NCBI GenBank assembly: GCA_036744855.1
Contig: DAIOHF010000014.1
Location: 45,287 to 109,286, forward strand
Source: Sedimentisphaerales bacterium
GTDB taxonomy: Bacteria; Planctomycetota; Phycisphaerae; Sedimentisphaerales; Anaerobacaceae
Direction: 5' to 3'
Length of the DNA stretch: 64,000 nt
Shown here: piece after piece, positions 4,404-36,010 of the stretch
Layout of the letters: each line of letters starts with the position of its first letter
Numbering within the stretch: position 1 is the first letter of the stretch
Notes under the pieces: model-generated
Told to the model about the DNA's origin: nothing
Seen by the model: only the letters and a program-made list of their open reading frames with translations
The model's database searches: none
Translations under genes and position numbers: made by a program

Positions 4404-4421
4404 CTTCCCTTCTTGGCTTCT

Positions 4422-4593
4422 TATACGGATTCGGATTGATGCGTGCGCGGGTCTTGTCATCCTGAACGCAGCGCAGCGAAGTGAAGGATCTGGCTCGCGA
4501 ACGAGAGAGACCTCTCGTCGTGTGCCCAGGTCCTTCGGCTGTGCCTCAGGACGACAAATCCTCGCCGCGCACGAATCACTCCGAATCCGTATT
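4422..4593. repeat. About 170-bp nested palindromic element (outer arms TATACGGATTCGGATTGATGCGTGCG, inner GTCATCCTGAACG...CCTCAGGACGAC module)
   Basis: Outer arms 4422-4447 and 4568-4593 are near reverse complements. The inner module at 4456-4555 belongs to the same family as 24524-24632. The right arm overlaps the stop codon of the GH28-like gene. Confidence 0.7.
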
Positions 4594-6001
4594 AGTCGCG
4601 GCGGACTCGCGTGACATCCTTCAGCATCAGGGGATTCGCCACTCCCTCGTATCGGGGGAATCGGACGGTGTCGAGCGTCAGATCGTTCACGTCCTCGCAG
4701 ATCATCACCGGCCGCAGGTCGGGCTTCTTGCAGGTCAGGCGGACGTCCTCCAGCGTGAGCCGCTCGACGTTGCGGGCGTAGAAGCCCCAGGCGGGAAGCG
4801 GTCGAGCGTCCACGCCGGGAGACTTGACCTCGCGCGCGACCGCGTCGGCGGCCCCGCCGCCTTCGAACTCGATGTCCACGTCGCGAAAGACCACGTCCTT
4901 GAATGGAGTCTCCGCCCAGCTTTCGACCGAGCAGGCGGCGCGATAGACGCCGGTCGCTGAGGCCCGCGTGACGGTGATCCGCCCCGCGGTGTTGCCCGGC
5001 TTCATCATGAAGTGGAACGGCGTCGTCACGTTCGTCATTGCGACGTCGCTGATGAACACGTCGTCGAGTTCGCCCTTGGTCGCGTCCCACGCCCCCGGCT
5101 GGAGGTTGATGCCCGCCAGCATGTTGTAGCGGTTCGACGTGCGGTGCGGGTGGAGCCCTGGGCCGTAGAACAGGCAGTCGCGGATGATCAGGCGTTTGGC
5201 CGGACCGATCAGGCGGATGCCGTTGCAGGCGGAATTGATGATGCAATCGGAGATGACCGTGTCCTCCCAGTACCGGCCGGCGATGCAGTCGTCGCCCGTG
5301 TAGAACCGGCAGTTGGTGATGCTCACGTCCCGGCACGGACGCTCCGGGGCCCCGCGCCAGTGGACGCCGTCCCAGCCGCCGGTGAACTTGACGTTGCGAA
5401 TGTCTACGTGGTCGCTGATCTGAAAGAAGATCGCGTAGTTGGCGGAGTCCACGAACGACACGTCGCGGACCGTCACGTTCTTGCAGTTGACGAACACGAA
5501 CGTGTGCGGCCCGCGCATCCGCTCTTCGCCCCGAGGGTCGAAGACCTTGTTGCCGTCGATGACGCCCCCGCCGGCGATGCCGATATCCTCCAGCCCCTCG
5601 CCGAGGATCAAGGCCCGATGCCACCTGCCCCACCTCGCCTCCGGCATGAAGTCCGGCACCCTCGGCTGCTGGTACGAATTCGGGTCCGGCGCCCCGACCA
5701 GCACAGCCCCGGGCTCCAGCAGCAGCGTCACACGGCTCTTCAGATGCACGGTAGCCGAAAGATACCGCCCAGGCCCAAACCGCACCTGTCCGCCCCCGGC
5801 CTGGGCGCAAGCCTCCACCGCCTTGTTGATCGCGACAGTATCGAGCGTCTTGCCATCCCCCGCCGCCCCATACTCGCGAACATCGAACACCCCCGCCCCA
5901 GCCGCGATAGCGACACGCGACGCAATGAGCACCGTCGCCACAACGCCCAGCCAACCGCCCATCGAAGAATGCCTCTGGGTCTTCCCGTTTGCTCGAATCA
6001 T
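4592..6001 (-). CDS. Secreted right-handed beta-helix glycoside hydrolase (GH28 / pectate-lyase-fold family)
   Basis: Signal-like N-terminus. FDVREYGAAGDGKTLDTxAINKAVEAC...GGGQVxFPxGxYL start typical of this fold. Repeated beta-helix turns (NCKNVTVRDV, VDIRNVKF, VSITNCRF, VISDCII). Confidence 0.7.
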   Translation of the reverse strand: MIRANGKTQRHSSMGGWLGVVATVLIASRVAIAAGAGVFDVREYGAAGDGKTLDTVAINKAVEACAQAGGGQVRFGPGRYLSATVHLKSRVTLLLEPGAVLVGAPDPNSYQQPRVPDFMPEARWGRWHRALILGEGLEDIGIAGGGVIDGNKVFDPRGEERMRGPHTFVFVNCKNVTVRDVSFVDSANYAIFFQISDHVDIRNVKFTGGWDGVHWRGAPERPCRDVSITNCRFYTGDDCIAGRYWEDTVISDCIINSACNGIRLIGPAKRLIIRDCLFYGPGLHPHRTSNRYNMLAGINLQPGAWDATKGELDDVFISDVAMTNVTTPFHFMMKPGNTAGRITVTRASATGVYRAACSVESWAETPFKDVVFRDVDIEFEGGGAADAVAREVKSPGVDARPLPAWGFYARNVERLTLEDVRLTCKKPDLRPVMICEDVNDLTLDTVRFPRYEGVANPLMLKDVTRVRRD

Positions 6002-6787: not shown

Positions 6788-7016
6788 CGAGTTCCCCTTC
6801 ACACGTGACCGGGATTCTAGTCCATTCCTGCGGCAGGGTCAATACGAACGACGGAGAATCTCGCGGCGATTGCACGTGACCGCGGCTGCAAGGTGTCGAG
6901 GGCGTCCCGCCCTCGAATCGCGGGCAAGATGCCCGCGACACGGGAGTCGTCCAACGATTGGCGACGCCACACGCAATTGCCCTGCGAGGAATCTCGGGGG
7001 GGTGCCTGGGTGTCTG
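6781..7016. repeat. Copy A of a ~236-bp composite repeat (REP hairpins plus outward RBS/start codon)
   Basis: Near-identical to 8779-9016 by direct reading. Contains hairpins GAGGGCGTCCCGCCCTC (6898-6914) and GCGGGCAAGATGCCCGC (6920-6936). Confidence 0.85.
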
Positions 7017-7319: not shown

Positions 7320-7928
7320 TCAGGGCTCCTTTGCCTGTTTGCTGACTCCCCGGCCCTCGCACCGCGCGAGGGCCTCGCTCATCGCGTGAACGAGCTTGTC
7401 GGACACAGCCGCCGAGTATCCAAGCGCGCGAGCCTTGCGAAAGGCTTCCTCAGCGGAGGCGACTTCCCCGCGCACCTGGAGAATCACGCCGAGATTGTGC
7501 CATGGGAGCGGAGCCTGCGCGTCGTGTTCCATCGCAGCCCGCAGGTGGTCCTCCGCGGCGTCGAGTTCCCCCAGGCGCATGCGAGCCGCACCGAGGTTCG
7601 TTTGCGTCATCACTGCGATGTCACGCGTGTAGATCCCCCAACTCAGCCAGATCAGCTTTTTCAGCCACGGCCTGGCCGCAAGTTGTTTAAGGAAGCGCGT
7701 GAAGCACGTGATCGATTCGGCTGCTCGATCTTCCGCAAGCAGCCGACGGCCCCGGAAGAAGTCGCGCCAGAAGTAGCCCTGAACCCGTCCGGGAACCAGG
7801 AAGACGCCGGCGGCAAGAACAAGCGTCATGGGATGAACATCGGTCGACAACACGACGATCGCCACTCCGGCACAGAGAGATGAGATCAAGGCTGCGTAGA
7901 AGACCTTGTATCGCGATGTTCTGTTCAT
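7320..7928 (-). CDS. Membrane-anchored TPR-like protein
   Basis: Two N-terminal hydrophobic helices, then TPR-like helical repeats (NLGAARMRLGELDAAEDHLRAAMEHD...WHNLGVILQVRGEVASAEEAFRKA). The ATG overlaps the upstream stop codon (ATGA at 7925-7928). Confidence 0.55.
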   Translation of the reverse strand: MNRTSRYKVFYAALISSLCAGVAIVVLSTDVHPMTLVLAAGVFLVPGRVQGYFWRDFFRGRRLLAEDRAAESITCFTRFLKQLAARPWLKKLIWLSWGIYTRDIAVMTQTNLGAARMRLGELDAAEDHLRAAMEHDAQAPLPWHNLGVILQVRGEVASAEEAFRKARALGYSAAVSDKLVHAMSEALARCEGRGVSKQAKEP

Positions 7929-8785
7929 TGTTCCGTCCCGATGTCTAACGTGAGGGATGAACCGCTCCGGCGAGAACGCCGTCCGCTACGGCCTTGCCGC
8001 AGTTGTGTTCGATCCGGTTGTTCTGCATTCTCACGCATGATGTTCATGAATCTCGTCGCGCTGACCGGACGGTCCGCGATCAGCTTTCCATTGCAGACGA
8101 TGCTGAACATGCCATAGGGCGTCGGAAGCTCCCTTGACGCCTCGGCGCTCGTGACGGGAACCACCTTCGGCTTCAACCCCAGGGCTCGGGCCGCCTGCGA
8201 AATCTCCTGGACCCACTTGGGAACCATCGGGCATTGATCGGCAGCCAGGATCGTCAGGCCCTTCTTGTACTTTCCCGGCAATCGCTCCCTTTGGACGATG
8301 AAACGAGGATCGGGGGCTGCTTTCTTCAGCTTCTTGACGAGCAGTTCATAAGGACCGATGCGGTCCACCGAGACGAAACCCGCTTTGAGGAAGAAGCCGC
8401 TGCCTGCCATGAAGCTGTCCTCGCTGGTCACGACCGCGACCCCTCGGCACTTGCTCTCCTTCGCGTCGCCCAGGCAACTATCCAGAAGGAGGACGCCGAG
8501 CCCTTTGCCCTTGTGCCTGCTGTTGACCATCAGGCAATGGATGACAAGATAACCCTCCGCCTCCACCGGTCTCCAGGCATGGTTGCCCAGGGCATACTCG
8601 ATCATCCCGATATCGCCGAATTCACGCGAGCGGAGCACCTTGAACCTCAAGCCTTCCGCGTAGCGTTCCTTGAGCCAACCAACCTTCCGGCGATGCCCCT
8701 CGCTTCTCCCGGCTTTGTAGCCACAGAAGCCGCAGTCGCTGATATTCCCGGCGTTCGTGTCGATGATCTCGTATTCGCCCTGCAT
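7925..8785 (-). CDS. GNAT-family N-acetyltransferase with YoaP-like C-terminal domain
   Basis: LVIHCLMVNSRHKGKGLGVLLLDSCL...GVAVVTS...GFFLKAGF resembles a GNAT acetyl-CoA site. The C-terminal half (QCPMVPKW...TPYGMFSIVCNGKLI) resembles the YoaP-like domain. I prefer the ATG at 8785 (MQGEYEII). Confidence 0.6.
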   Translation of the reverse strand: MQGEYEIIDTNAGNISDCGFCGYKAGRSEGHRRKVGWLKERYAEGLRFKVLRSREFGDIGMIEYALGNHAWRPVEAEGYLVIHCLMVNSRHKGKGLGVLLLDSCLGDAKESKCRGVAVVTSEDSFMAGSGFFLKAGFVSVDRIGPYELLVKKLKKAAPDPRFIVQRERLPGKYKKGLTILAADQCPMVPKWVQEISQAARALGLKPKVVPVTSAEASRELPTPYGMFSIVCNGKLIADRPVSATRFMNIMRENAEQPDRTQLRQGRSGRRSRRSGSSLTLDIGTEQ

Positions 8786-9016
8786 CGAATTCCCCTTCAC
8801 ACGTGACCGGGATTCTAATCCACTCCCGTTGGAGGGTCAATGCGGGCGACGGCGAATCTCGCGGCGATTGCACGTGACCGCGGCTGCAACGTGTCGAGGG
8901 CGTCCCGCCCTCGAATCGCGGGCAAGATGCCCGCGACACGGGAGTCGTCCAACGATTGGCGACGCCACACGCAATTGACCTGCGAGGAATCTGGGGGCGG
9001 GGGCCTGGGTGTCTTC
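8779..9016. repeat. Copy B of the ~236-bp composite repeat
   Basis: Near-identical to 6781-7016. Hairpins at 8896-8912 and 8918-8934. It ends at the start codon of the GNAT gene. Confidence 0.85.
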
Positions 9017-9274
9017 GCAGCGTGCGTTTGGCGCGTTGCGGATACCCGCGGGGAGAGAGGGAAAGGCCCGACACGAAACGCGGACCATCCACCAGTGAAG
9101 AGAGGCTCTTCTCGCAGCGCTTCACCTAATCCGTCTCACGCTTCACGAGACCCGCTTCACGCCTCTGCCCCTCTCCGCTGGTATCCCCAAAGCGATAAAC
9201 GCACCCCTCGAATCCGGCGGGACGCCCCGACTCCGAGGAAACCGCAAGAACGGCCGCACGCCTCGATTTGGGGC

Positions 9275-9303
9275 TTGATAGCCCGGCCAGCTTGGACTAT
9301 AGT
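9275..9303 (+). promoter_or_regulatory. Sigma-70-like promoter upstream of the galK-pyrK-pyrD unit
   Basis: TTGATA, 17-nt spacer, TATAGT, located 55 nt upstream of the ATG at 9358. Confidence 0.5.
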
Positions 9304-9357
9304 CAGCGCCGTTGTGACGGTGCGTGCGACGGATGAACCTTTTGTGCAGAGGTCGGG

Positions 9358-10674
9358 ATGGAGTTGGCAAGGGAAGACCAGGCAGCGGTGGAGAAGCTCC
9401 GCCAGTTGGCGAAGGAGAACCAGATCGACATTGCCGGCGGCAAGCTGCGGCGGACTTCGTCGCGGTTCTGCCTGGGCGTCGAGCACGGCGACTACAACGG
9501 CACCGAACTCTTCGGCGTCGGGACCGACCGCTTCATCTGGATGGCCTACAAGCCCAACGGCACCAAGAAAGTCCGGCTCTTCAGCGGCAACTTCCCCGCC
9601 GACGGCGTCGTCGAGTACACGATCGGCAACGTCCCTGCCCCCAAGTCCGCGGCCATCGCCGACACCTGGGGCCGATTCCCCTACGGCATCGACTACATCC
9701 TGAAGCGCGAGGGCTTCCAACTCAAACAAGGCATCGACGCGGTCCTCTTCGGCAACATCCCCGGCGGCGGCATGAGCCGCTCGGCCTCGCTGTGCATCAA
9801 TCTGATCCTCTCGCTCTTCGACGCCAATGGCGTGGAGGTTCCAAGTTTGAAGTGTCAAGTTTCAAGTGCGGAGGACGCAACCTCCAAGCTTCAAACTTCA
9901 AACTTCAAACTTCAAACTCCTATGCAGATCGTCGATCTCGCCCAGGCGGTCGAGAACGACTACATCGGCTCCCCCTGCGGCAAGCTGGATCAGACGATGG
10001 TCCTGTTCGCCAAGGAAGGCATGGGAACCTACTACAACCCCCAGGACCGCTCGATCGAGTACGTGCCGATCGGCAAAGGGGCCATCGATTTCCGCATCGT
10101 GGTCCTCGACACCGGCACCGACCGGCCGGGCCTGGAGAAGGCGACCTACGCCGTGCGGCGAAGGCAGTGCGAGGAACTGGTCGGCATCCTTCAGAAGGCC
10201 GGCTACAAGATCACCTGCCTGGCCGACGTCAAAGACGAGGCGATGTACAAGAAGATCCTGGACCAGTTCGGCCGCAGCCACGCGGACCTCTGCGACCGAC
10301 TCAATTACATCTACCATGCTCAGCAGCGGTTCTATCAGATGATGGACGCCTGGCGATCCGGCGACGTCGAAAAGGTCGGCGCGATCTTCCGCCAGGACGG
10401 ACTGGGTCTGCGCGACGACTACAAGATCTCCGGGCCGGAACTTGAAACGATGTGCGACGTCGTCCGCACGGTCCCCGGCGTCCTCGGCGAACGCATGCTC
10501 GGCGGCGGCGACAAAGGCGCCTCCGGCGCGCTGGTCCGGGCCGAGAGCGTCGAAGCGGTCAAGCAGGCGGTCGACGCCGCGTATCCGCGAAGCCGGCCCG
10601 CTTTCGCGAACAAATACGCCGCCCACGTCTGTAAAGTGGTGGATGGCGTTCGACTGTATGAGGGCGTCCTTTGA
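9358..10674 (+). CDS. galK: Galactokinase-like GHMP kinase carrying an in-frame palindromic insert
   Basis: GHMP motif GNIPGGGMSRSASLCINLIL and GalK-like AVENDYIGSPCGKLDQ. C-terminal GGGDKGASGALV. A ~25-codon low-complexity insert lies between the two motifs. Confidence 0.75.
   Translation: MELAREDQAAVEKLRQLAKENQIDIAGGKLRRTSSRFCLGVEHGDYNGTELFGVGTDRFIWMAYKPNGTKKVRLFSGNFPADGVVEYTIGNVPAPKSAAIADTWGRFPYGIDYILKREGFQLKQGIDAVLFGNIPGGGMSRSASLCINLILSLFDANGVEVPSLKCQVSSAEDATSKLQTSNFKLQTPMQIVDLAQAVENDYIGSPCGKLDQTMVLFAKEGMGTYYNPQDRSIEYVPIGKGAIDFRIVVLDTGTDRPGLEKATYAVRRRQCEELVGILQKAGYKITCLADVKDEAMYKKILDQFGRSHADLCDRLNYIYHAQQRFYQMMDAWRSGDVEKVGAIFRQDGLGLRDDYKISGPELETMCDVVRTVPGVLGERMLGGGDKGASGALVRAESVEAVKQAVDAAYPRSRPAFANKYAAHVCKVVDGVRLYEGVL
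9842..9918. repeat. About 77-bp imperfect palindrome (TTCAAACTT-periodic arms, GGAGG-ACGCAA-CCTCC centre) inside galK
   Basis: CAAGTTTGAAGTGTCAAGTTTCAAGTGCGGAGG / CCTCCAAGCTTCAAACTTCAAACTTCAAACT read directly. AT-rich relative to the gene. Translated as SLKCQVSSAEDATSKLQTSNFKLQT. Confidence 0.75.
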
Positions 10675-11618
10675 GCCACACGACGACACAAAAAGGAAAC
10701 TTCACCGCGACGGTCCTGTCCAACCGCAAGATCGGCGAATGCTTCTGGCGGATGGACCTGGAATTCACTGGCGACGGCGCCAGGGCCTTCGCGGGATTTC
10801 AGCCGGGACAGTTTCTCCAGATCGACGTATCCCAGGTCGGTCTGCCGCCGGAGGACCGAATCCCGGCGCACCTGCGCGACGCCTGCAAGCGCAACGTCAT
10901 CCTCCGACGGCCGTTCAGCTTCGCGGATGTGACCGCCGAGATCGGCAGAACGACGGCTGAGCTGCTCTACTGCGTGCTCGGACCGGCGTCTGTGCGATTG
11001 ACTACCCTTGCAGCCGGCGATTCCGCGAGCATCATCGGACCGCTGGGCAACGGCTTCTCCATGCCCAGGAACAAGAGACTGGCCCTGCTGGTCGCGGGCG
11101 GCATGGGAATCCCCCCGATTCGTTGCCTGGCCAAGTACCTGCCGACCGCGTATCCCGAGCTGAAGATCATCGCCTTCGTGGGGGCCAAGAGCATCGACGC
11201 ATTGCCGTTCGAGGGCGATCAGGGCGAGATCCCGTCCGAGGTCGGCCCCTTCCTCCCGGCCTTCGCCAAGTACGGCATTTCTTCGGCCGTGGCTACCGAC
11301 GACGGTTCTGCGGGTTACTGGGGCTTCGTCACCAACCGTCTGGCCAAGTGGCTCGACGAAGAGAAGGACTGGTCCCCCGCCGGCACGATCCTCTACGCCT
11401 GCGGCCCCGAGCCCATGCTGGCGGCGGTCGCCCGTCTGGCCGGGGAGCGGAACATCGATTGCCAGGTGAGCATGGAGCGACGGATGGCCTGCGGCATCGG
11501 CCTGTGCCAGAGCTGCGCCGTGGAGTGCAAAGTCGAGGGCTCGCAGGAGACGGTCTACAAACTCTGCTGCCAGGACGGCCCGGTCTTCGACGCAAGAGAG
11601 GTCGTGTTCGGCGAGTGA
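10671..11618 (+). CDS. pyrK: Dihydroorotate dehydrogenase electron-transfer subunit (PyrK)
   Basis: FAD/NAD-binding fold (RRPFSF, GPLGNGF, LVAGGMGIPP). C-terminal 2Fe-2S motif MACGIGLCQSCAV...CCQDGPVF. The TTG start overlaps the galK stop codon (TTGA). Confidence 0.85.
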   Translation: MSHTTTQKGNFTATVLSNRKIGECFWRMDLEFTGDGARAFAGFQPGQFLQIDVSQVGLPPEDRIPAHLRDACKRNVILRRPFSFADVTAEIGRTTAELLYCVLGPASVRLTTLAAGDSASIIGPLGNGFSMPRNKRLALLVAGGMGIPPIRCLAKYLPTAYPELKIIAFVGAKSIDALPFEGDQGEIPSEVGPFLPAFAKYGISSAVATDDGSAGYWGFVTNRLAKWLDEEKDWSPAGTILYACGPEPMLAAVARLAGERNIDCQVSMERRMACGIGLCQSCAVECKVEGSQETVYKLCCQDGPVFDAREVVFGE

Positions 11619-11622
11619 ATCG

Positions 11623-12561
11623 ATGACAAAGACAGGTACTGACATTTCGCTGGATTTTGCGGGGGTTCGGCTGAGGAACCCCGTGTTCACGGCCTCGGGC
11701 ACGTGCGGGTACGGCGATGAGTTGGGCGACTTCATGGACGTCAACGCGCTGGGCGGGTTCATCACCAAGAGCATCACGCTCAAGCCCCGCAAGGGCAACC
11801 GCACGCCGCGGATCGTCGAGACCGACGCCGGCATGCTCAACGCCATCGGTCTGGCGAACGTCGGACTCGACCGCTTCCTGGCCGAGAAACTGCCGATCAT
11901 CGCGGAGATGACCGTGCCGGTGTTCGTGAACGTCGCAGGCGAGCGGATCGAGGAGTATGTCGCGGTCACCGAGCGTCTGGCCCAGGAGAAGGCCATCGCA
12001 GGCTTCGAGCTGAACATCAGTTGCCCGAACGTGGCCAAAGGCGGCATCAGCTTCGGCCGGGACCCGTGCCAGGTCGCCGAGATCACCGCGGCGGTCCGCA
12101 GAGCCGCGGGCGAAAAGACGCTCATCGTGAAGCTCTCGCCGACGGTGACGGACATCAGCGCCACCGCCCGCGCCGCGGTCGAGGGCGGCGCGGACGCCCT
12201 GAGCCTGATCAACACCTTCACCGCGATGGTCATCGACATCGAGACGCGAAGACCCGTCCTGGCCAACCGCACGGGCGGCCTCTCCGGCCCGGCGGTCAAA
12301 CCCATGGCCGTCTACCTCGTGAGCAAGGTCTACAGCGAAGTGACCCGCAGCGCGGGCATTCCGATCCTCGGCCTGGGCGGCATCCGCACGGCCTCCGACG
12401 CCATCGAGTTCCTCATCGCCGGCGCCTCGGCGGTCGCGATCGGCACCGCCAGCTTCATAGAGCCCACGACGGCGATCCAGGTCATCGAAGGAATCCGCGC
12501 CTACTGCGCCAGGCACAACATCGCGAAGCTCACGGACCTGATCGGCTCGCTGTTCACATAG
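11623..12561 (+). CDS. pyrD: Dihydroorotate dehydrogenase catalytic subunit, class 1B (PyrD)
   Basis: NPVFTASGTCGYG, GFITKSIT, NAIGLANVG, ELNISCPNV and LSGPAVKP motifs. Confidence 0.9.
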   Translation: MTKTGTDISLDFAGVRLRNPVFTASGTCGYGDELGDFMDVNALGGFITKSITLKPRKGNRTPRIVETDAGMLNAIGLANVGLDRFLAEKLPIIAEMTVPVFVNVAGERIEEYVAVTERLAQEKAIAGFELNISCPNVAKGGISFGRDPCQVAEITAAVRRAAGEKTLIVKLSPTVTDISATARAAVEGGADALSLINTFTAMVIDIETRRPVLANRTGGLSGPAVKPMAVYLVSKVYSEVTRSAGIPILGLGGIRTASDAIEFLIAGASAVAIGTASFIEPTTAIQVIEGIRAYCARHNIAKLTDLIGSLFT

Positions 12562-15521: not shown

Positions 15522-15873
15522 GACGTATCAGCCCCGCCTTTCTCAAGGAAGCGCCCTAGCCGCCGAACTCGGCCATCTGTCTTTTGCACTCCCAACATCG
15601 GGTCGCCTTTACTTGTCGCAACGATTATACCGTGCCGGGCAGGGGAAGGCAAGACCGCCGGCGAAGAGGATCGCCTCTCCTGCGGCTGCGGTCACAATAC
15701 GGCGGCAGGACTTGTACAAATTTCGGCATATTTTCGGTTTTTGTGCAACACACAACCATCATCGAGCGTCTTAATGATGAGCGACTTGGAGGGACCGCCA
15801 GGGCCTTAGGGCCCGGTCGCAGGCTGGACCAGGGTTTCTGCGAACGCGTATGAGAAGCGCTCTTCGTCGTGTC

Positions 15874-15939
15874 GCGGGCGTCCCGCCCGCGCGTGACGAG
15901 GCCATCTTGGCCTCGCATTTCCGCGGACAAGATGTCCGC
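15874..15939. repeat. Cluster of three REP-type 7+3+7 hairpins
   Basis: GCGGGCG-TCC-CGCCCGC (15874-15890), GAGGCCA-TCT-TGGCCTC (15898-15914) and GCGGACA-AGA-TGTCCGC (15923-15939), followed by the GACACG tail. Confidence 0.8.
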
Positions 15940-16089
15940 GACACGTTCTGAATGGCAAAGGCACGATATCTTGTTTTCCGGCTTCTTGAGACAATGGACC
16001 GCGACAATCACACTGACACAGTAGGGATTCATGCTTTCATTCGCACCACCCAGGCTCTTCGTCGTTCACAAGCCGCCAAGCTCGCGAAA

Positions 16090-16293
16090 TTGGGTTTGTT
16101 TCGCACAGTTGGCCTCTGGGCCTGGGCCGGGCTTTGCGACATTGGCTTCGTTTCGCACAATCGGGCTTTGGCCACGGCGGGGCGACCGCGTCGGGGCACG
16201 ACTGTGCGAAACAAAGCCAATCTACGCTGGACCAAGTGGCACGCGGGCCGGCGAAGGGACTACGACCGGTCAAATTGTGCGAAACGAAGCCAA
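16090..16293. repeat. Nested inverted repeat made of four 18-nt units TTGGSTTYGTTTCGCACA (F,F,R,R)
   Basis: Units at 16090-16107 and 16142-16159 are forward. Units at 16203-16220 and 16276-16293 are reverse complement. All were read directly. Confidence 0.8.
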
Positions 16294-16593
16294 TTCCCGC
16301 TCTTGGGGCCAAGACGCCCCATCCTGTGTCCGCCACCGCAGGCCGGGTGCACCCTCTCCTGCTCTGCCCCGACGAAGGCGGGTCGGGCCGAGACCGAAAT
16401 TGATGTTTCACAGGCGATGGGGTATCCTGGGCCCGTTATGAGATCGCCAAGAGACAAGACAATTGAGAACCAGGCACCTACCAATCGTGGGACGGTCGGC
16501 CTCCCAAACCCGGCGTATCGCCTTTGGGGACCCCAAGCACAAATCCCAAGTCAATTCGGATTCCAGAATCCAAGACTCAAGACGGAGGATTCG

Positions 16594-26219: not shown

Positions 26220-26231
26220 CAGATGGAGTCC

Positions 26232-26297
26232 AATAGGTCCTATCGGTCTTATTCGTCCTATAGGACCGATGGGACCGATAGGACAAATAGGACGAAC
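26232..26297. repeat. 9-bp-periodic palindromic tract (TAGGTCCTA / TAGGACCGA units)
   Basis: AATAGGTCC TATCGGTCT TATTCGTCC TATAGGACC GATGGGACC GATAGGACA AATAGGACG read directly. The orientation flips at the centre. Confidence 0.75.
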
Positions 26298-32168: not shown

Positions 32169-35100
32169 ATGGCTGAGTTGTCGAAGGTGTACGATCCGAA
32201 GGCCGTCGAGGAGCAGATCAACAAGCTCTGGCAGTCGGGGTCCTATTTCCATGCCGAGCCGTCGCGCGACGGGAACAAACGCCCCCCGTTCACGATCGTG
32301 ATCCCCCCGCCGAACGTCACCGCGGCCCTGCACCTGGGACATGCCCTCAACAACACGCTCCAGGACGTCCTGATCCGGTTCCGCAGGATGCAGCAGCGCG
32401 AGACGCTCTGGATGCCCGGCACGGACCACGCCGGCATCGCGACGCAGACGGTCGTCGAGAAGCGAATCCTTTCGGAGGAAGGCAAGCGGCGCACCGACTT
32501 CGCGCGGGAGGAGTTCGTCAAACGCATCCAGGCATGGAAGGACGAATACGAAGCGACGATCCTCGGCCAGCTCAAGGCGATGGGTTGCTCGTGCGACTGG
32601 CAGCGGACCCGCTTCACGATGGACGAGGTCTGCGCCAAGGCGGTCCGCGCAACGTTCTTCAAGCTCTTCCAGGACGGCCTGATCTATCGCGGCAAACGCC
32701 TCGTGAACTGGGACCCGGCCACCCAGACGGTCCTTGCCGACGACGAAGTCGAGCACGAGACGGTCCAAGGCCACTTTTGGTACCTGAAATACCCGCTCGT
32801 TGAGCCGGTCGAGGTGCCGCGTGATGCGGGCATCCTGCCCGCACGTGTCGCGGACGTCCCGTCCGCGAGTGCCGAGGGCGTCCCGCCCTCGGAAATTGGG
32901 CGAGAGCCAACCATCGAGAAGCGAATGGGCCGCTACCTGCCTCACTGGTCCAAGGATGATGCTGTGTACGCCGTCACTTTCCGTCTCGCGGACGCGGTCC
33001 CAGATGACATCTCCGAGGACTGGCGTCTTCAGCGACAGAATATCGTGCAACGTGCCCAGCAACAGGAACATCCACTCAGCTATGACGAACGGGTCGAGCT
33101 GCAAAGACTCCACTCGGCGAAGATCGAAGCCTTCCTCGATGCAGGGCATGGCGATTGTCTTCTCCGAGACCCGCAGGTCGCCCGAATTGTGCAGAATGCA
33201 GTGCGGCACTTCGACCATGAACGGTATGAGATCGTCGCCTGGGCGATCATGCCCAATCATGTGCATGTGGTCGTCAGACCCTTCGCCGGACAGGAGCTAT
33301 CCAAGATCGTTCAGTCCTGGAAGTCTTTTGCAGCCAAGGAAATCAACCGATTGCTCAACCGCCAGGGTTCCCTCTGGATGGATGAGTATTATGACCATCT
33401 GATTCGTGATGAAAAGGACCTCGGGAACCAGGTCAGCTACACGCTCGCAAACCCTGAGAAGGCCGGTTTGCAGAATTGGCCGTGGTATGGCACTATACAC
33501 GGTGAAGAACGAGGGCAGGATGCCCTCGACACGCAAGGGCGGGACGCCCTCGCCACGATGACCTACGTCACCGTCGCCACGACCCGGCCGGAGACGATGC
33601 TGGGCGATACCGCTGTCGCCATGAACCCGGCCGATCCGAGAGCGAAGTCCCTCGTCGGCAAAATGGTCCGCCTGCCCATCGTCGGGCGCGTCATCCCGAT
33701 CATCGCCGACGAGCACGTCGTGCTGCCGAACCCCGAGAGCGAGGACGAGAAGGCCAGGTTCTCCACGGGCTTCTTGAAGGTCACGCCCGCCCACGACCCG
33801 GACGACTGGGCCATCGGGCAAAGGCACAATCTGTCGGTGATCAACGTGATGGCGCCGGACGGCTCGATCAGCGACAAGCACGGCTGGCAGGACGCGACCG
33901 AGCCCGAAGCCCGCAACCTGCTCGGCATGGACCGCTTCGAAGCCCGCGAGGCCATCGTCGAATGGTTCCGCCAGGAAAACCTGCTGGAGGAGATTCGCGA
34001 CTACACCCACGAAGTCGGCCACAGCTACCGCAGCCACGTCCCGATCGAGCCCTACCTGTCCGATCAGTGGTACGTCGCGGTCAAGCAGCCGATCCCGCAC
34101 TTGGCTGAGAAATTCGGTAGCGGCACGATCGAAGGAACCGATGTCCCCGTAAACTCGCTCGCAGGTCTGGCGCTCAAGCCCCTACTCGACAGCCGCCTGC
34201 GGTTCATCCCCGAACGATACGCCAAGACCTATCAGACTTGGCTGGAGAACCTGCGGGACTGGCCGATCAGCCGCCAGCTCTGGTGGGGACACCGCATTCC
34301 GGTGTGGTCCAAGCCCGGCCAGCAGAATGGAACTGCCCTGCCCGCCGGCGTCCATTCCGTCCAAGCGGACACCGACGAAGGTCCGATCGTCTTCGCCTGC
34401 GTCGCTCCTGGTCACGAGGACGTGGAGAAGAAACTCGAATCGCAGGGATGGAAGCGCGACTCCGACGTTCTCGACACGTGGTTCTCGTCGGCCCTCTGGC
34501 CGTTCAGTACGCTGGGCTGGCCGCAGGAGTCACCGACGCTGGAGACCTTCTACCCGGGCGACGTGCTGTGCACCGCCCGCGAGATCATCACGCTGTGGGT
34601 CTCCCGCATGGTGATGATGGGCCAGTACTGCGCGGGCGACATCCCGTTCCGCGATGTGTACATTCACGCGATGATCCAGGACGGCGAAGGCCGTAAGATG
34701 TCCAAGAGTCTGGGCAACGGCATCGATCCGCTCGTCGTGATCGACAGCCACGGCGCCGACGCGATGCGGTTCACCCTGGCGACCATGACGACGGACACGC
34801 AGGACATCCGCATGCCGGTGGCGTCCATGACGCTGCCGGATGGGCGGACCGTGAACACCTCGCCCAAGTTCGACGTCGGCCGCAATTTCTGCAACAAGCT
34901 GTGGAACGCATCGCGGTTCGCGATGATGAATCTCGAAGGGACGGATCCCGCGGGCTTCGACGCGAGCCGACTGGATGTCACCGACCGCTGGATCCTGTCC
35001 CGCCTGGCGACGACCCGCCACGAGGTGACCGCGGCCGTCGAGTCGTTCAAGTTCAGCGAGCCGGTGAACCTCTTGTACCGCTTCTTCTGGAACGACCTGT

Positions 35101-35836: not shown

Positions 35837-36010
35837 GGATTTCCGAAAAACGGCCATTCGACCTATATTCTTCAAGGAAATCTGTTTCACGATTTCCTTG
35901 GAGAATCGATTTAGAGTGTACTCTGGTATGGACGAATTTTCAGGAGGGAGGAATTGCAGGGCAAATTCTTCCCTCCTAAAGTAGGCCGAATAGCCGTTTT
36001 TCGGAGATCC
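35837..36010. repeat. 174-bp AT-rich element with 29-bp terminal inverted repeats (MITE or structured RNA candidate)
   Basis: GGATTTCCGAAAAACGGCCATTCGACCTA (35837-35865) versus TAGGCCGAATAGCCGTTTTTCGGAGATCC (35982-36010). Internal hairpins GGAAATC...GATTTCC and GGAGGGAGGAATT...AATTCTTCCCTCC. Confidence 0.7.

Follow-up and report, generated by a model that had tools for sequence, protein, structure and literature searches.

How can a strongly palindromic stretch of DNA lie within the coding sequence of a conserved enzyme and leave the reading frame open, and where may such DNA have come from? This question is raised by a galactokinase-like sugar kinase gene of a Sedimentisphaerales bacterium (Planctomycetota), which was analysed here within a stretch of 64 kb of contig DAIOHF010000014.1, referred to as the window; coordinates are positions in this window, unless another locus is named. 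The gene carries an in-frame insert of 81 nt that forms a hairpin with arms built from 7-nt tandem repeats. In our judgement the insert is probably, although far from certainly, selfish or neutral hairpin DNA sitting in a permissive loop of a working kinase, kept open by selection and moved by recombination, at a site that repeatedly gathers palindromes. The features on which this argument rests are the following.

9358 to 10674, plus strand: host gene, a GHMP-family galactokinase-like sugar kinase (open reading frame, ORF, of 438 aa with the insert).
9841 to 9921, plus strand: in-frame insert of 81 nt, codons P162 to P188, read as PSLKCQVSSAEDATSKLQTSNFKLQTP (protein alignment, site typing, DNA comparison with the empty allele L083).
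9838 to 9874, plus strand: left arm, degenerate heptamers AAGTTTG/AAGTGTC/AAGTTTC with GGAGG at the end (inverted-repeat and tandem-repeat analysis).
9875 to 9880, plus strand: loop ACGCAA (sequence and folds).
9881 to 9917, plus strand: right arm, CCTCC and then a near-perfect CAAACTT x 4.9 array read as QTSNFKL (inverted-repeat and tandem-repeat analysis).
9925 to 9939, plus strand: native 15-nt palindrome of the gene, CAGATCGTCGATCTG in most orthologues, codons QIVDL (flank alignment; local hairpin in folds).

A preliminary description of this DNA had proposed an AT-rich, imperfect palindrome of about 77 bp with periodic arms at 9842-9918, through which the reading frame continues, and all of these points were borne out, the coordinates being correct to within 1-3 nt. 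The inverted-repeat search returned arms of 37 nt each, 78% complementary and 6 nt apart, around the centre as it had been described (GGAGG at 9870-9874, ACGCAA at 9875-9880 and CCTCC at 9881-9885), and Tandem Repeats Finder reported CAAACTT x 4.9 with 96% matches at 9885-9918, together with a degenerate period-7/14 array at 9842-9868. The insert thus has the three or more tandem 7-nt units of a heptanucleotide simple sequence repeat (SSR). The expected hairpin potential was also found: folded alone, the insert reached -43.4 kcal/mol as RNA (z -6.9) and -22.4 kcal/mol as DNA (z -5.0), and none of 200 dinucleotide shuffles folded as well. The GC content is 0.42-0.47 over 9840-9939 versus approximately 0.60-0.70 in the gene on either side. 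The 438-aa ORF reads straight across the 27 codons (...GVEV-PSLKCQVSSAEDATSKLQTSNFKLQTP-MQIVDLAQAVENDYIGSPCGKLDQ), which encode a low-complexity loop of 27 residues, rich in Ser, Thr, Lys and Gln, with the peptides SLKCQVSSAEDATSK and LQTSNFK. An assembly artefact was ruled out, since the insert is also present in independent assemblies from several sources.

Regarding the host gene, the ORF matches Pfam GHMP_kinases_N and, at 1e-31 to 1e-21, galactokinases of the PDB, and NCBIfam galactokinase models match it as well (best 1.8e-50) with scores well under their equivalog cut-offs; because of this combination it would best be labelled galactokinase-like rather than GalK. The dN/dS of the flanks was 0.05-0.13 against orthologues, in filled and empty alleles alike, which argues that the kinase is under purifying selection and stays functional with the insert. 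As the preliminary description had stated for E. coli GalK, only a short loop is usual at this position: in the alignments, the solved galactokinases 1PIE and 6TEP have no counterpart to query residues ~165-187, and the spacing between motif II and the GxxDQ motif is 39-40 residues in 67 of 82 diverse full-length family representatives versus 64 in the window. A minority of these representatives have +1 to +34 residues at the insert position, suggesting that it is a length-tolerant loop of the kinase family, and nearly all HMMER alignments to distant homologues split exactly at the insert. We therefore propose that the palindrome with its 7-nt tandem-repeat arms may have lodged in a single insertion-tolerant loop, predicted to lie at the surface, which would join two helices, the one that follows phosphate-binding motif II and the one that runs to the GxxDQ catalytic motif; the hairpin would be transcribed and translated as a 27-residue loop of an enzyme that still works.

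The alignment of orthologues placed the insert as lineage-restricted, most of them lacking it. Two sets were used, the best 120 database homologues (75-98% identical, 109 of them typeable at the site) and 80 metagenomic orthologous loci (68-97% identical). A three-residue linker (EKQ, KQK, ENK or similar) occupies the site in 84 of the 109 typeable closest homologues, the modal length of which is 414 aa, and the short site recurs in about 70 of the 80 metagenome loci; this short linker in most orthologues shows the insert to be the derived state. Several kinds of insert, here called types A to F, are found at the site, type A being the kind present in the window. In a neighbour-joining tree of 106 orthologue cores, from which the insert had been cut out, at least eight places carry type A and at least four carry type B, each adjoining sisters with an empty site. 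For P0005, P0007, P0020 and P0028, for instance, the nearest empty allele is 93.6-96.6% identical versus 87.5-92.2% for the nearest type A allele. Since the empty alleles keep linkers typical of their own clade, they are not excision products.

How, then, could the insert be so scattered? The closest empty relative, L083, reads GTC-GAGAAACAG-ATG where the window reads GTT-CC[A...ACT CC]T-ATG. Both genes are 94.5% identical as a whole, versus 84.6% in the 195 nt around the site, a value as divergent as that between unrelated lineages, and further mosaic patches lie near the site; a recombination tract covers it. The 120 nt downstream of the site are conserved in all alleles, only L083 being aberrant. 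Homologous recombination of alleles would account for the patchy distribution better than repeated transposition does, because allele exchange through conserved flanks produces patchiness without many independent site-specific insertions. The element may accordingly have spread among, and been lost from, related Phycisphaerae/Sedimentisphaerales-like populations by this route. The left arm of type A is identical at 27 of 27 positions in the window, L001 and L081, and at 26 of 27 in L087, while the flank dS between the window and L081 or L087 is 0.5-0.64; owing to this near-identity, the element would be either younger than the divergence of the host gene or constrained at every codon position. 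Co-import of the flanks together with type A was considered and rejected, as these are no more alike among type A alleles than when compared with empty ones. Separately, a second mosaic patch was observed in the pyrK-like gene at 10862-11160, where the identity to L083 falls to 67-80% from 93-98% elsewhere in that gene, which indicates that homologous recombination is frequent in this population.

A translated repeat of seven nucleotides is read in all three phases, and this has consequences for the palindrome. Both (AAGTTTG)n and (GAAACTT)n contain TGA, whereas (CAAACTT)n, read as QTSNFKL, and (AAGTTTC)n, read as KFQVSSF, are free of it; a perfect (AAGTTTG)n/(CAAACTT)n or (AAGTTTC)n/(GAAACTT)n palindrome therefore always has TGA in one arm. 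A translated hairpin of these heptamers thus cannot form a perfect palindrome. When the left arm was copied onto the right, a stop arose in six of six type A alleles, and copying the right arm onto the left gave a stop in five of six. The imperfection of the palindrome, with its degenerate left arm and 78% complementarity, follows from the avoidance of stop codons, and purifying selection would keep the insert a multiple of three and stop-free, with at least one mismatch in about every third unit.

The same arithmetic invites another explanation, phase variation, in which (CAAACTT)4.9 slips by one 7-nt unit, the frame shifts and the kinase is reversibly switched off. The array inside the ORF has 96% matches, and the length of its units is no multiple of three; such a role is known for neuO of E. 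coli K1, where (5'-AAGACTC-3')n, present in 3-53 units at the 5' end of the gene, causes slippage and ON/OFF switching from within the coding region (PMC13001214). Both repeats are in-coding heptanucleotides that run through three phases, encode a peptide with a period of seven residues and keep the frame for suitable unit numbers. However, type A has fewer than five units, an inverted partner and an internal position, and shows no length polymorphism among close alleles: the window and P0001-P0004, five alleles that are 95-98% identical, are equal in length and differ by point substitutions only. Four to five units and different loops occur in more distant alleles, the arrays are degenerate in most other alleles, and a cytoplasmic sugar kinase would make an atypical contingency gene, so that we regard a switch of this kind as highly improbable.

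The preferred reading, hairpin DNA tolerated in a permissive loop, draws support from what else is found at the same place. Among members of the clade with 76% identity or more to the window protein, at least six kinds of insert are found at this one codon-level position; the DNA of most of them was fetched and folded.

Type A (window, L001, L081, L087, L082, L088): heptamer arms from CCAAGTTTGAAG to CTTCAAACTCC, loops of 6 to ~40 nt.
Type B (L002, L005, L010): single repetitive extragenic palindromic (REP) unit on the minus strand, GTGG-CG-AGGGCG-TCC-CGCCCT, encoding ...SRAGRPRH...
Type C (L085): GGTAGGGTGGGGCTTGCCCCACC ... GGTGGGGCAAGCCCCACCCTAC, with a GTAG head, a self-palindromic unit and two inverted copies.
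Type D (L084): head GTAGGGTG as in type C, different palindrome; doublet resembling a REPIN (a hairpin-forming REP doublet).
Type E (L086): further variant.
Type F (P0100): further variant, protein only.
6893 to 6941, plus strand: REP doublet GTGTCGAGGGCGTCCCGCCCTCGAATCGCGGGCAAGATGCCCGCGACAC, of the same REP family as the type B insert (repeat searches).

Good folds were obtained for each of the six type A alleles (z -2.5 to -7.1). Their inverted termini, as deduced from the alleles, are GGAGTTTGAAG...CTTCAAACTCC, with no consistent duplication at the junctions, and they start with CCAAGTTTG, lacking the GTAG/CGTC head that distinguishes REPs and REPINs. Type B, headed GTGGCG..., matches that head approximately and is barely structured (z -0.1 to -0.7), while types C and D have GTAG...CTAC ends (GGTAGGGTG...CACCCTAC) and self-palindromic units, the architecture of a REPIN, and fold strongly (type C, -56.9 kcal/mol, z -9.0; type D, z -6.6). 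To judge from their peptides, allele F (P0100) and a long B allele (P0042) may also be hairpins. Type C keeps a 3' remnant of type A, AAACTCC, and type D is lodged between type A remnants, CCAAGC ... CAACTGCAAACTCC; since C and D sit between remnants of the heptamer element, an existing hairpin may attract further palindromes. The site is a hot spot, occupied in other lineages by a REP unit or by GTAG-headed, REPIN-like doublets. The reason for it could possibly be the native palindrome CAGATCGTCGATCTG, which lies 3 nt downstream of the insert and whose copy in the window ends in C.

B and C also occur elsewhere, and both are dispersed repeats: the core of type B was found at 6893, 8891, 32869 and 33535 of the window and at 2438 of L005, often as inverted doublets, and type C at 2441-2510 of L082 and in L007 and L008. 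The REP family of GTGTCGAGGGCGTCCCGCCCTCGAATCGCGGGCAAGATGCCCGCGACAC has further copies at 8891-8939, 15868-15945, 32826-32890 and 33512-33556, the last three being single or tandem units. The 30-nt upstream flanks of the doublets at 6893-6941 and 8891-8939 are near-identical (29/30), so that a small segment upstream of the kinase gene may have been duplicated. The preliminary description had attributed to the insert a behaviour like that of the Rickettsia palindromic elements (RPEs) and had named a search for further copies in the genome as a check. Such behaviour is clearly present in the lineage, in that in-frame REP/REPIN-type palindromes B, C and D occupy the site in sister lineages. Further copies exist of B, C and the intergenic 853-1005 element described below, all of them dispersed; for type A itself, neither the window nor ~620 kb of related loci yielded another copy.

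Did the insert come ready-made or arise where it lies? In the second case, a heptanucleotide microsatellite would have grown by replication slippage, acquired an inverted copy by intrastrand template switching and spread as an allele by recombination. Heptameric SSRs are over-represented in bacteria, occasionally occur as inverted pairs and have received little detailed study, slippage having been proposed as their cause (Rehm et al. 2015, PMC4692102). We searched contigs of one genome per species with the pattern AAGTNTS x 3 + AAGT and obtained more than 118 matching stretches, against a chance expectation of ~0.5 by our own rough estimate, each locus having its own unit sequence. The hosts include Nostoc, Flavobacterium, Acidobacteriota, Planctomycetota, Verrucomicrobiota, Desulfobacterales and others, and most matches are intergenic period-7 arrays; an inverted partner lies within 200 nt in 36 of 126 arrays, versus 15 in the control. 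The breadth of these arrays, their locus-specific units and their inverted partners agree with an origin in place, as do a right arm that is more homogeneous in the window than in L001 and P0001, which fits ongoing homogenisation of units, and the lack of another type A copy in 685 kb. On the other hand, the ancestral 9-nt linker GAGAAACAG has no plausible seed beyond GAAAC, and the arms are near-identical although the flank dS is 0.5-1.0.

Hairpins found in other genes and spacers also speak against growth in place, and the following bear most directly on this question.

L192 672 to 785, 1617 to 1742 and 3501 to 3614, minus strand: hairpins in a UvrA-like ORF.
853 to 1005, unstranded: intergenic palindrome with 7-nt periodic arms AAATCCG / GTTTCGA (repeat searches; DNA fold z -3.5).

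Twelve of the 126 arrays, from other genomes, lie in long ORFs. Pfam confirmed arrays inside the LeuRS editing domain, AroC (chorismate synthase), the ArgRS DALR domain, TopA (topoisomerase I), MurD and UvrA of other phyla, and one in the linker between both domains of a PSCyt1/PSCyt2 protein. In an Akkermansiaceae metagenome-assembled genome (MAG; JAXGLL010000001.1), a giant UvrA-like ORF has three mutually alike in-frame hairpins with heptamer arms (PSSKCQVSS...LETSHLKLET), which share 31 of 36 nt with the left arm of the window, including GTTCCAAGTT, which lies outside the searched pattern. Homology of these Verrucomicrobial hairpins to type A is a lead rather than a result, and the recurrence of the same GAGTTTSAAG...CTTSAAACTC ends in unrelated Verrucomicrobiota genes speaks against an origin in place. 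The uvrA genes of Opitutus terrae are interrupted by REPs (Di Nocera et al., PMC3733652), so that PVC bacteria seem to harbour such DNA in repair genes repeatedly. As a separate observation, MurD of a Desulfobacterales MAG (L107 2150-3583, minus strand) contains a long in-frame heptamer tract, FETGNWKLETGNWKFETGNLKFETGN...KFQVSSFKFQ, whose halves are complementary arrays, so that more than 50 residues are inserted within the middle domain of the Mur ligase.

Within the same lineage, the palindrome at 853-1005 resembles the kinase insert, as the preliminary description had already remarked for a spacer palindrome it placed at 858-1008: both have 7-nt periodic arms. Its arms read CGAAATCCGAAAC...GTTTCGGATTTCG, a partial copy lies at 30-57, and it fills the junction between an AIRC-like and a Carb_kinase gene, which in L083 and L082 measures 3-4 nt. 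Relatives were found at L082 3675-3900, L083 4052-4079, L085 1162-1296 and L005 2501-2534, so that the family is a dispersed, MITE-like (miniature inverted-repeat transposable element), insertion-like element of the lineage; the copy in L082 has a second, nested palindrome TGTCATTGCGAGCGCAGCGAAGCAATC... That an architecturally alike element is clearly a dispersed family counts against slippage at the kinase site, and the existence of dispersed heptamer-armed palindromes therefore makes a ready-made origin of type A more plausible. On this evidence we consider growth in place unlikely, and the element would have come ready-made.

Several observations weigh against the reading that we prefer. 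The junction is not clean, 9 nt of EKQ-type linker having been replaced by 81 nt with no target-site duplication; no donor of the recombination tract was found; and the 685 kb sampled contained no further copy of type A, save for a weak look-alike between genes at L061 7100-7137, so that the mobility of type A is not demonstrated. The likeness to the Verrucomicrobial hairpins is partly by construction, since these were found with a heptamer pattern. As to surface exposure of the loop, the AlphaFold2 model of the window protein (62-sequence alignment) had a mean pLDDT of 59, and below 50 over residues 157-241, and is too poor to use. RNAalifold found a double compensatory change at only one of the 23 stem pairs of the six type A alleles, so that upkeep of the hairpin, whether through selection or through conversion between its arms, is unproven. 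The mobility of type A, recombination as the vehicle of its spread and the absence of a host function are thus what we infer from the comparisons above.

Could the hairpin instead be retained because its structure helps the host? A selected nucleic-acid structure in the mRNA or DNA, any hairpin at the site being retained, could act as a translational pause between the kinase domains, as a site for RNase processing or stability of the kinase-pyrK-pyrD transcript, or as a protein-binding site. The presence of at least six unrelated hairpin sequences at exactly one site would fit such a role, and so would a hairpin potential that is kept while the sequence drifts, with some complementary arm changes, e.g., AAGTTTC with GAAACTT in L001. 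Nevertheless, most orthologues, including some that are 95-97% identical, do without any hairpin under equal constraint, type B has hardly any structure, and covariation is weak. Antisense folds were slightly more stable than sense folds in all 11 inserts, and G-U pairs are rare on the sense strand. No promoter-like or terminator-like site was detected at the insert, and Rfam returned no family for it, only sub-threshold miRNA-precursor-like matches such as any long hairpin gives. RNA-level selection of the structure thus found no support in these comparisons, and a selected structure, all candidate roles taken jointly, seems quite improbable.

An advantage might alternatively come from the protein, if the 27 residues gave the kinase a new property in interaction, regulation or localisation. 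The arm-encoded peptides PSLKCQVSS and LQTSNFKLQTP are indeed conserved among type A alleles, but these conserved parts coincide with the DNA arms, and their conservation is explained at the nucleotide level. Moreover, the peptide has a centre of hypervariable length and sequence, other lineages have mutually dissimilar peptides at the site (SRAGRPRH, GRVGLAPPQ...) and close relatives do without the loop. An adaptive loop is the most improbable of the explanations considered here, and we return to hairpin DNA tolerated by a working kinase.

Palindromic DNA of this kind has precedents. Ogata et al. in 2000 reportedly described RPEs as selfish DNA in frame within protein-coding genes. Such palindromic in-frame inserts have since been described together with intragenic in-frame REPs, which are most abundant in Opitutus terrae (PVC) and Rickettsia conorii (PMC3733652). 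Like type A, RPEs are hairpin-capable inserts of tens of nucleotides, translated in frame and absent from orthologues, in genes that stay functional, and both encode 20-30 extra residues. The analogy is therefore apt as a description of behaviour. It goes no further than behaviour: a sequence relationship is not expected, the host belongs to Planctomycetota rather than Alphaproteobacteria, the arms are 7-nt tandem repeats, and the distribution appears to be shaped by recombination among free-living relatives instead of vertical descent in an intracellular lineage. Homology of type A to the RPE families is very unlikely because of the heptamer arms and the distant host.

The second precedent is that of the GTAG/CGTC-tagged REPs and REPINs (Bertels and Rainey 2011, PMC3116915; Di Nocera et al. 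2013, PMC3733652). Alleles C and D resemble them in having a GTAG head, a self-palindromic unit and two inverted copies, and B is a single GTGG-headed REP; the peptides of these alleles (SRAGRPRH, GRVGLAPP) resemble the O. terrae REP peptides HGRHARAT and VGPALAAG (PMC3733652). In contrast, type A is untagged, AT-rich, longer (81 nt) and built from heptamers, and its repetition in its own genome is not demonstrated; being a single copy in the sampled DNA, it departs from the high-copy, mostly extragenic distribution of REPs and REPINs. Type A is thus not a member of the GTAG/CGTC REP families, and very probably not of the RPE families either. No RAYT gene turned up in the window, in which no search aimed at RAYT was made.

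Bacterial MITEs (Correia/NEMIS, Nezha, ERIC) are short, non-coding, hairpin-forming and dispersed, and occasionally co-translated. The 853-1005 family fits this description, whereas type A has terminal repeats that are internally periodic (7 nt), with no target-site duplication, parent insertion sequence or transposase known. The tandem heptamers of cyanobacteria and the GGGAATC-type repeats of Xanthomonas and Nostoc are, like type A, tandem 7-nt units that vary between close relatives and sometimes form inverted stem-loop pairs. Those published are intergenic and G-rich and have been discussed as quadruplex or regulatory elements (PMC4692102), while type A is AT-rich, complement-paired and translated in a conserved enzyme.

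A wider proposal, which we hold to be doubtful, is that heptanucleotide hairpins form a distinct class of mobile palindromes in Planctomycetota, Verrucomicrobiota, Acidobacteriota, Desulfobacterota and others. With termini GAGTTTSAAG...CTTSAAACTC, they would colonise genes in frame at the price of one forced mismatch about every 21 nt, serve as landing pads that capture REPs or REPINs into an intragenic palindrome mosaic, and pass between species in a homing-like manner by homologous recombination through conserved flanks.

So far, knowledge of in-frame palindromic DNA has come mainly from Rickettsia and a GTAG/CGTC REP survey, and this locus adds a plan with 7-nt microsatellite arms. The heptamer-armed hairpin links the excess of heptameric repeats in bacteria with palindromic selfish DNA, both of which are poorly explained, and stop avoidance provides a simple coding rule that predicts where translated palindromes have to be imperfect. 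With an empty state and at least six inserts at one codon-level site, the locus is a natural experiment in which rates of gain, loss, replacement and recombinational spread are measurable from metagenomes. In practical terms, such inserts inflate protein length, split hidden Markov model alignments and can mislead the annotation and alignment of MAG proteins.

The neighbourhood of the kinase gene varies as well. In relatives, a GH28/pectate-lyase-fold gene lies 5' of the kinase and pyrK-like and pyrD genes lie 3'. In the window, 7925-9350 has a minus-strand ORF (7925-8800) in place of the GH28/pectate-lyase-fold gene (L083 8260-9669, L082 8366-9808), and the ~550 nt after this ORF are rich in palindromes, e.g., 9014-9055 paired with 9171-9212. 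Between the pyrK-like gene and pyrD, relatives have a RelB-like antitoxin/ParE-toxin pair (L081 5474-5946, L082 12461-12933, L083 12278-12750, L085 5462-5934); in the window both genes are 4 nt apart (11618-11623) and the toxin-antitoxin cassette is absent, a presence/absence polymorphism.

Heptamer arrays also occur in viral DNA. Seven viral contigs contain AAGTTTG-type arrays, all apparently intergenic, and gave no evidence of a phage vector; in the phage-like L208 and L210 (IMG/VR), a short AAGTTTG array directly follows a stop codon and is itself followed by a strong, GC-rich terminator hairpin. Elsewhere in the window, a palindrome with a perfect centre at 26228-26293 has arms of about six copies of 9-nt tandem units of the GTCCTATAG type. 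Inverted-repeat pairs were also found at 4420-4595, 35837-36010 and 16088-16295, with arms of 21-31 nt that are 87-100% complementary and ~112-162 nt apart, and these are possible MITE-like elements with terminal inverted repeats.

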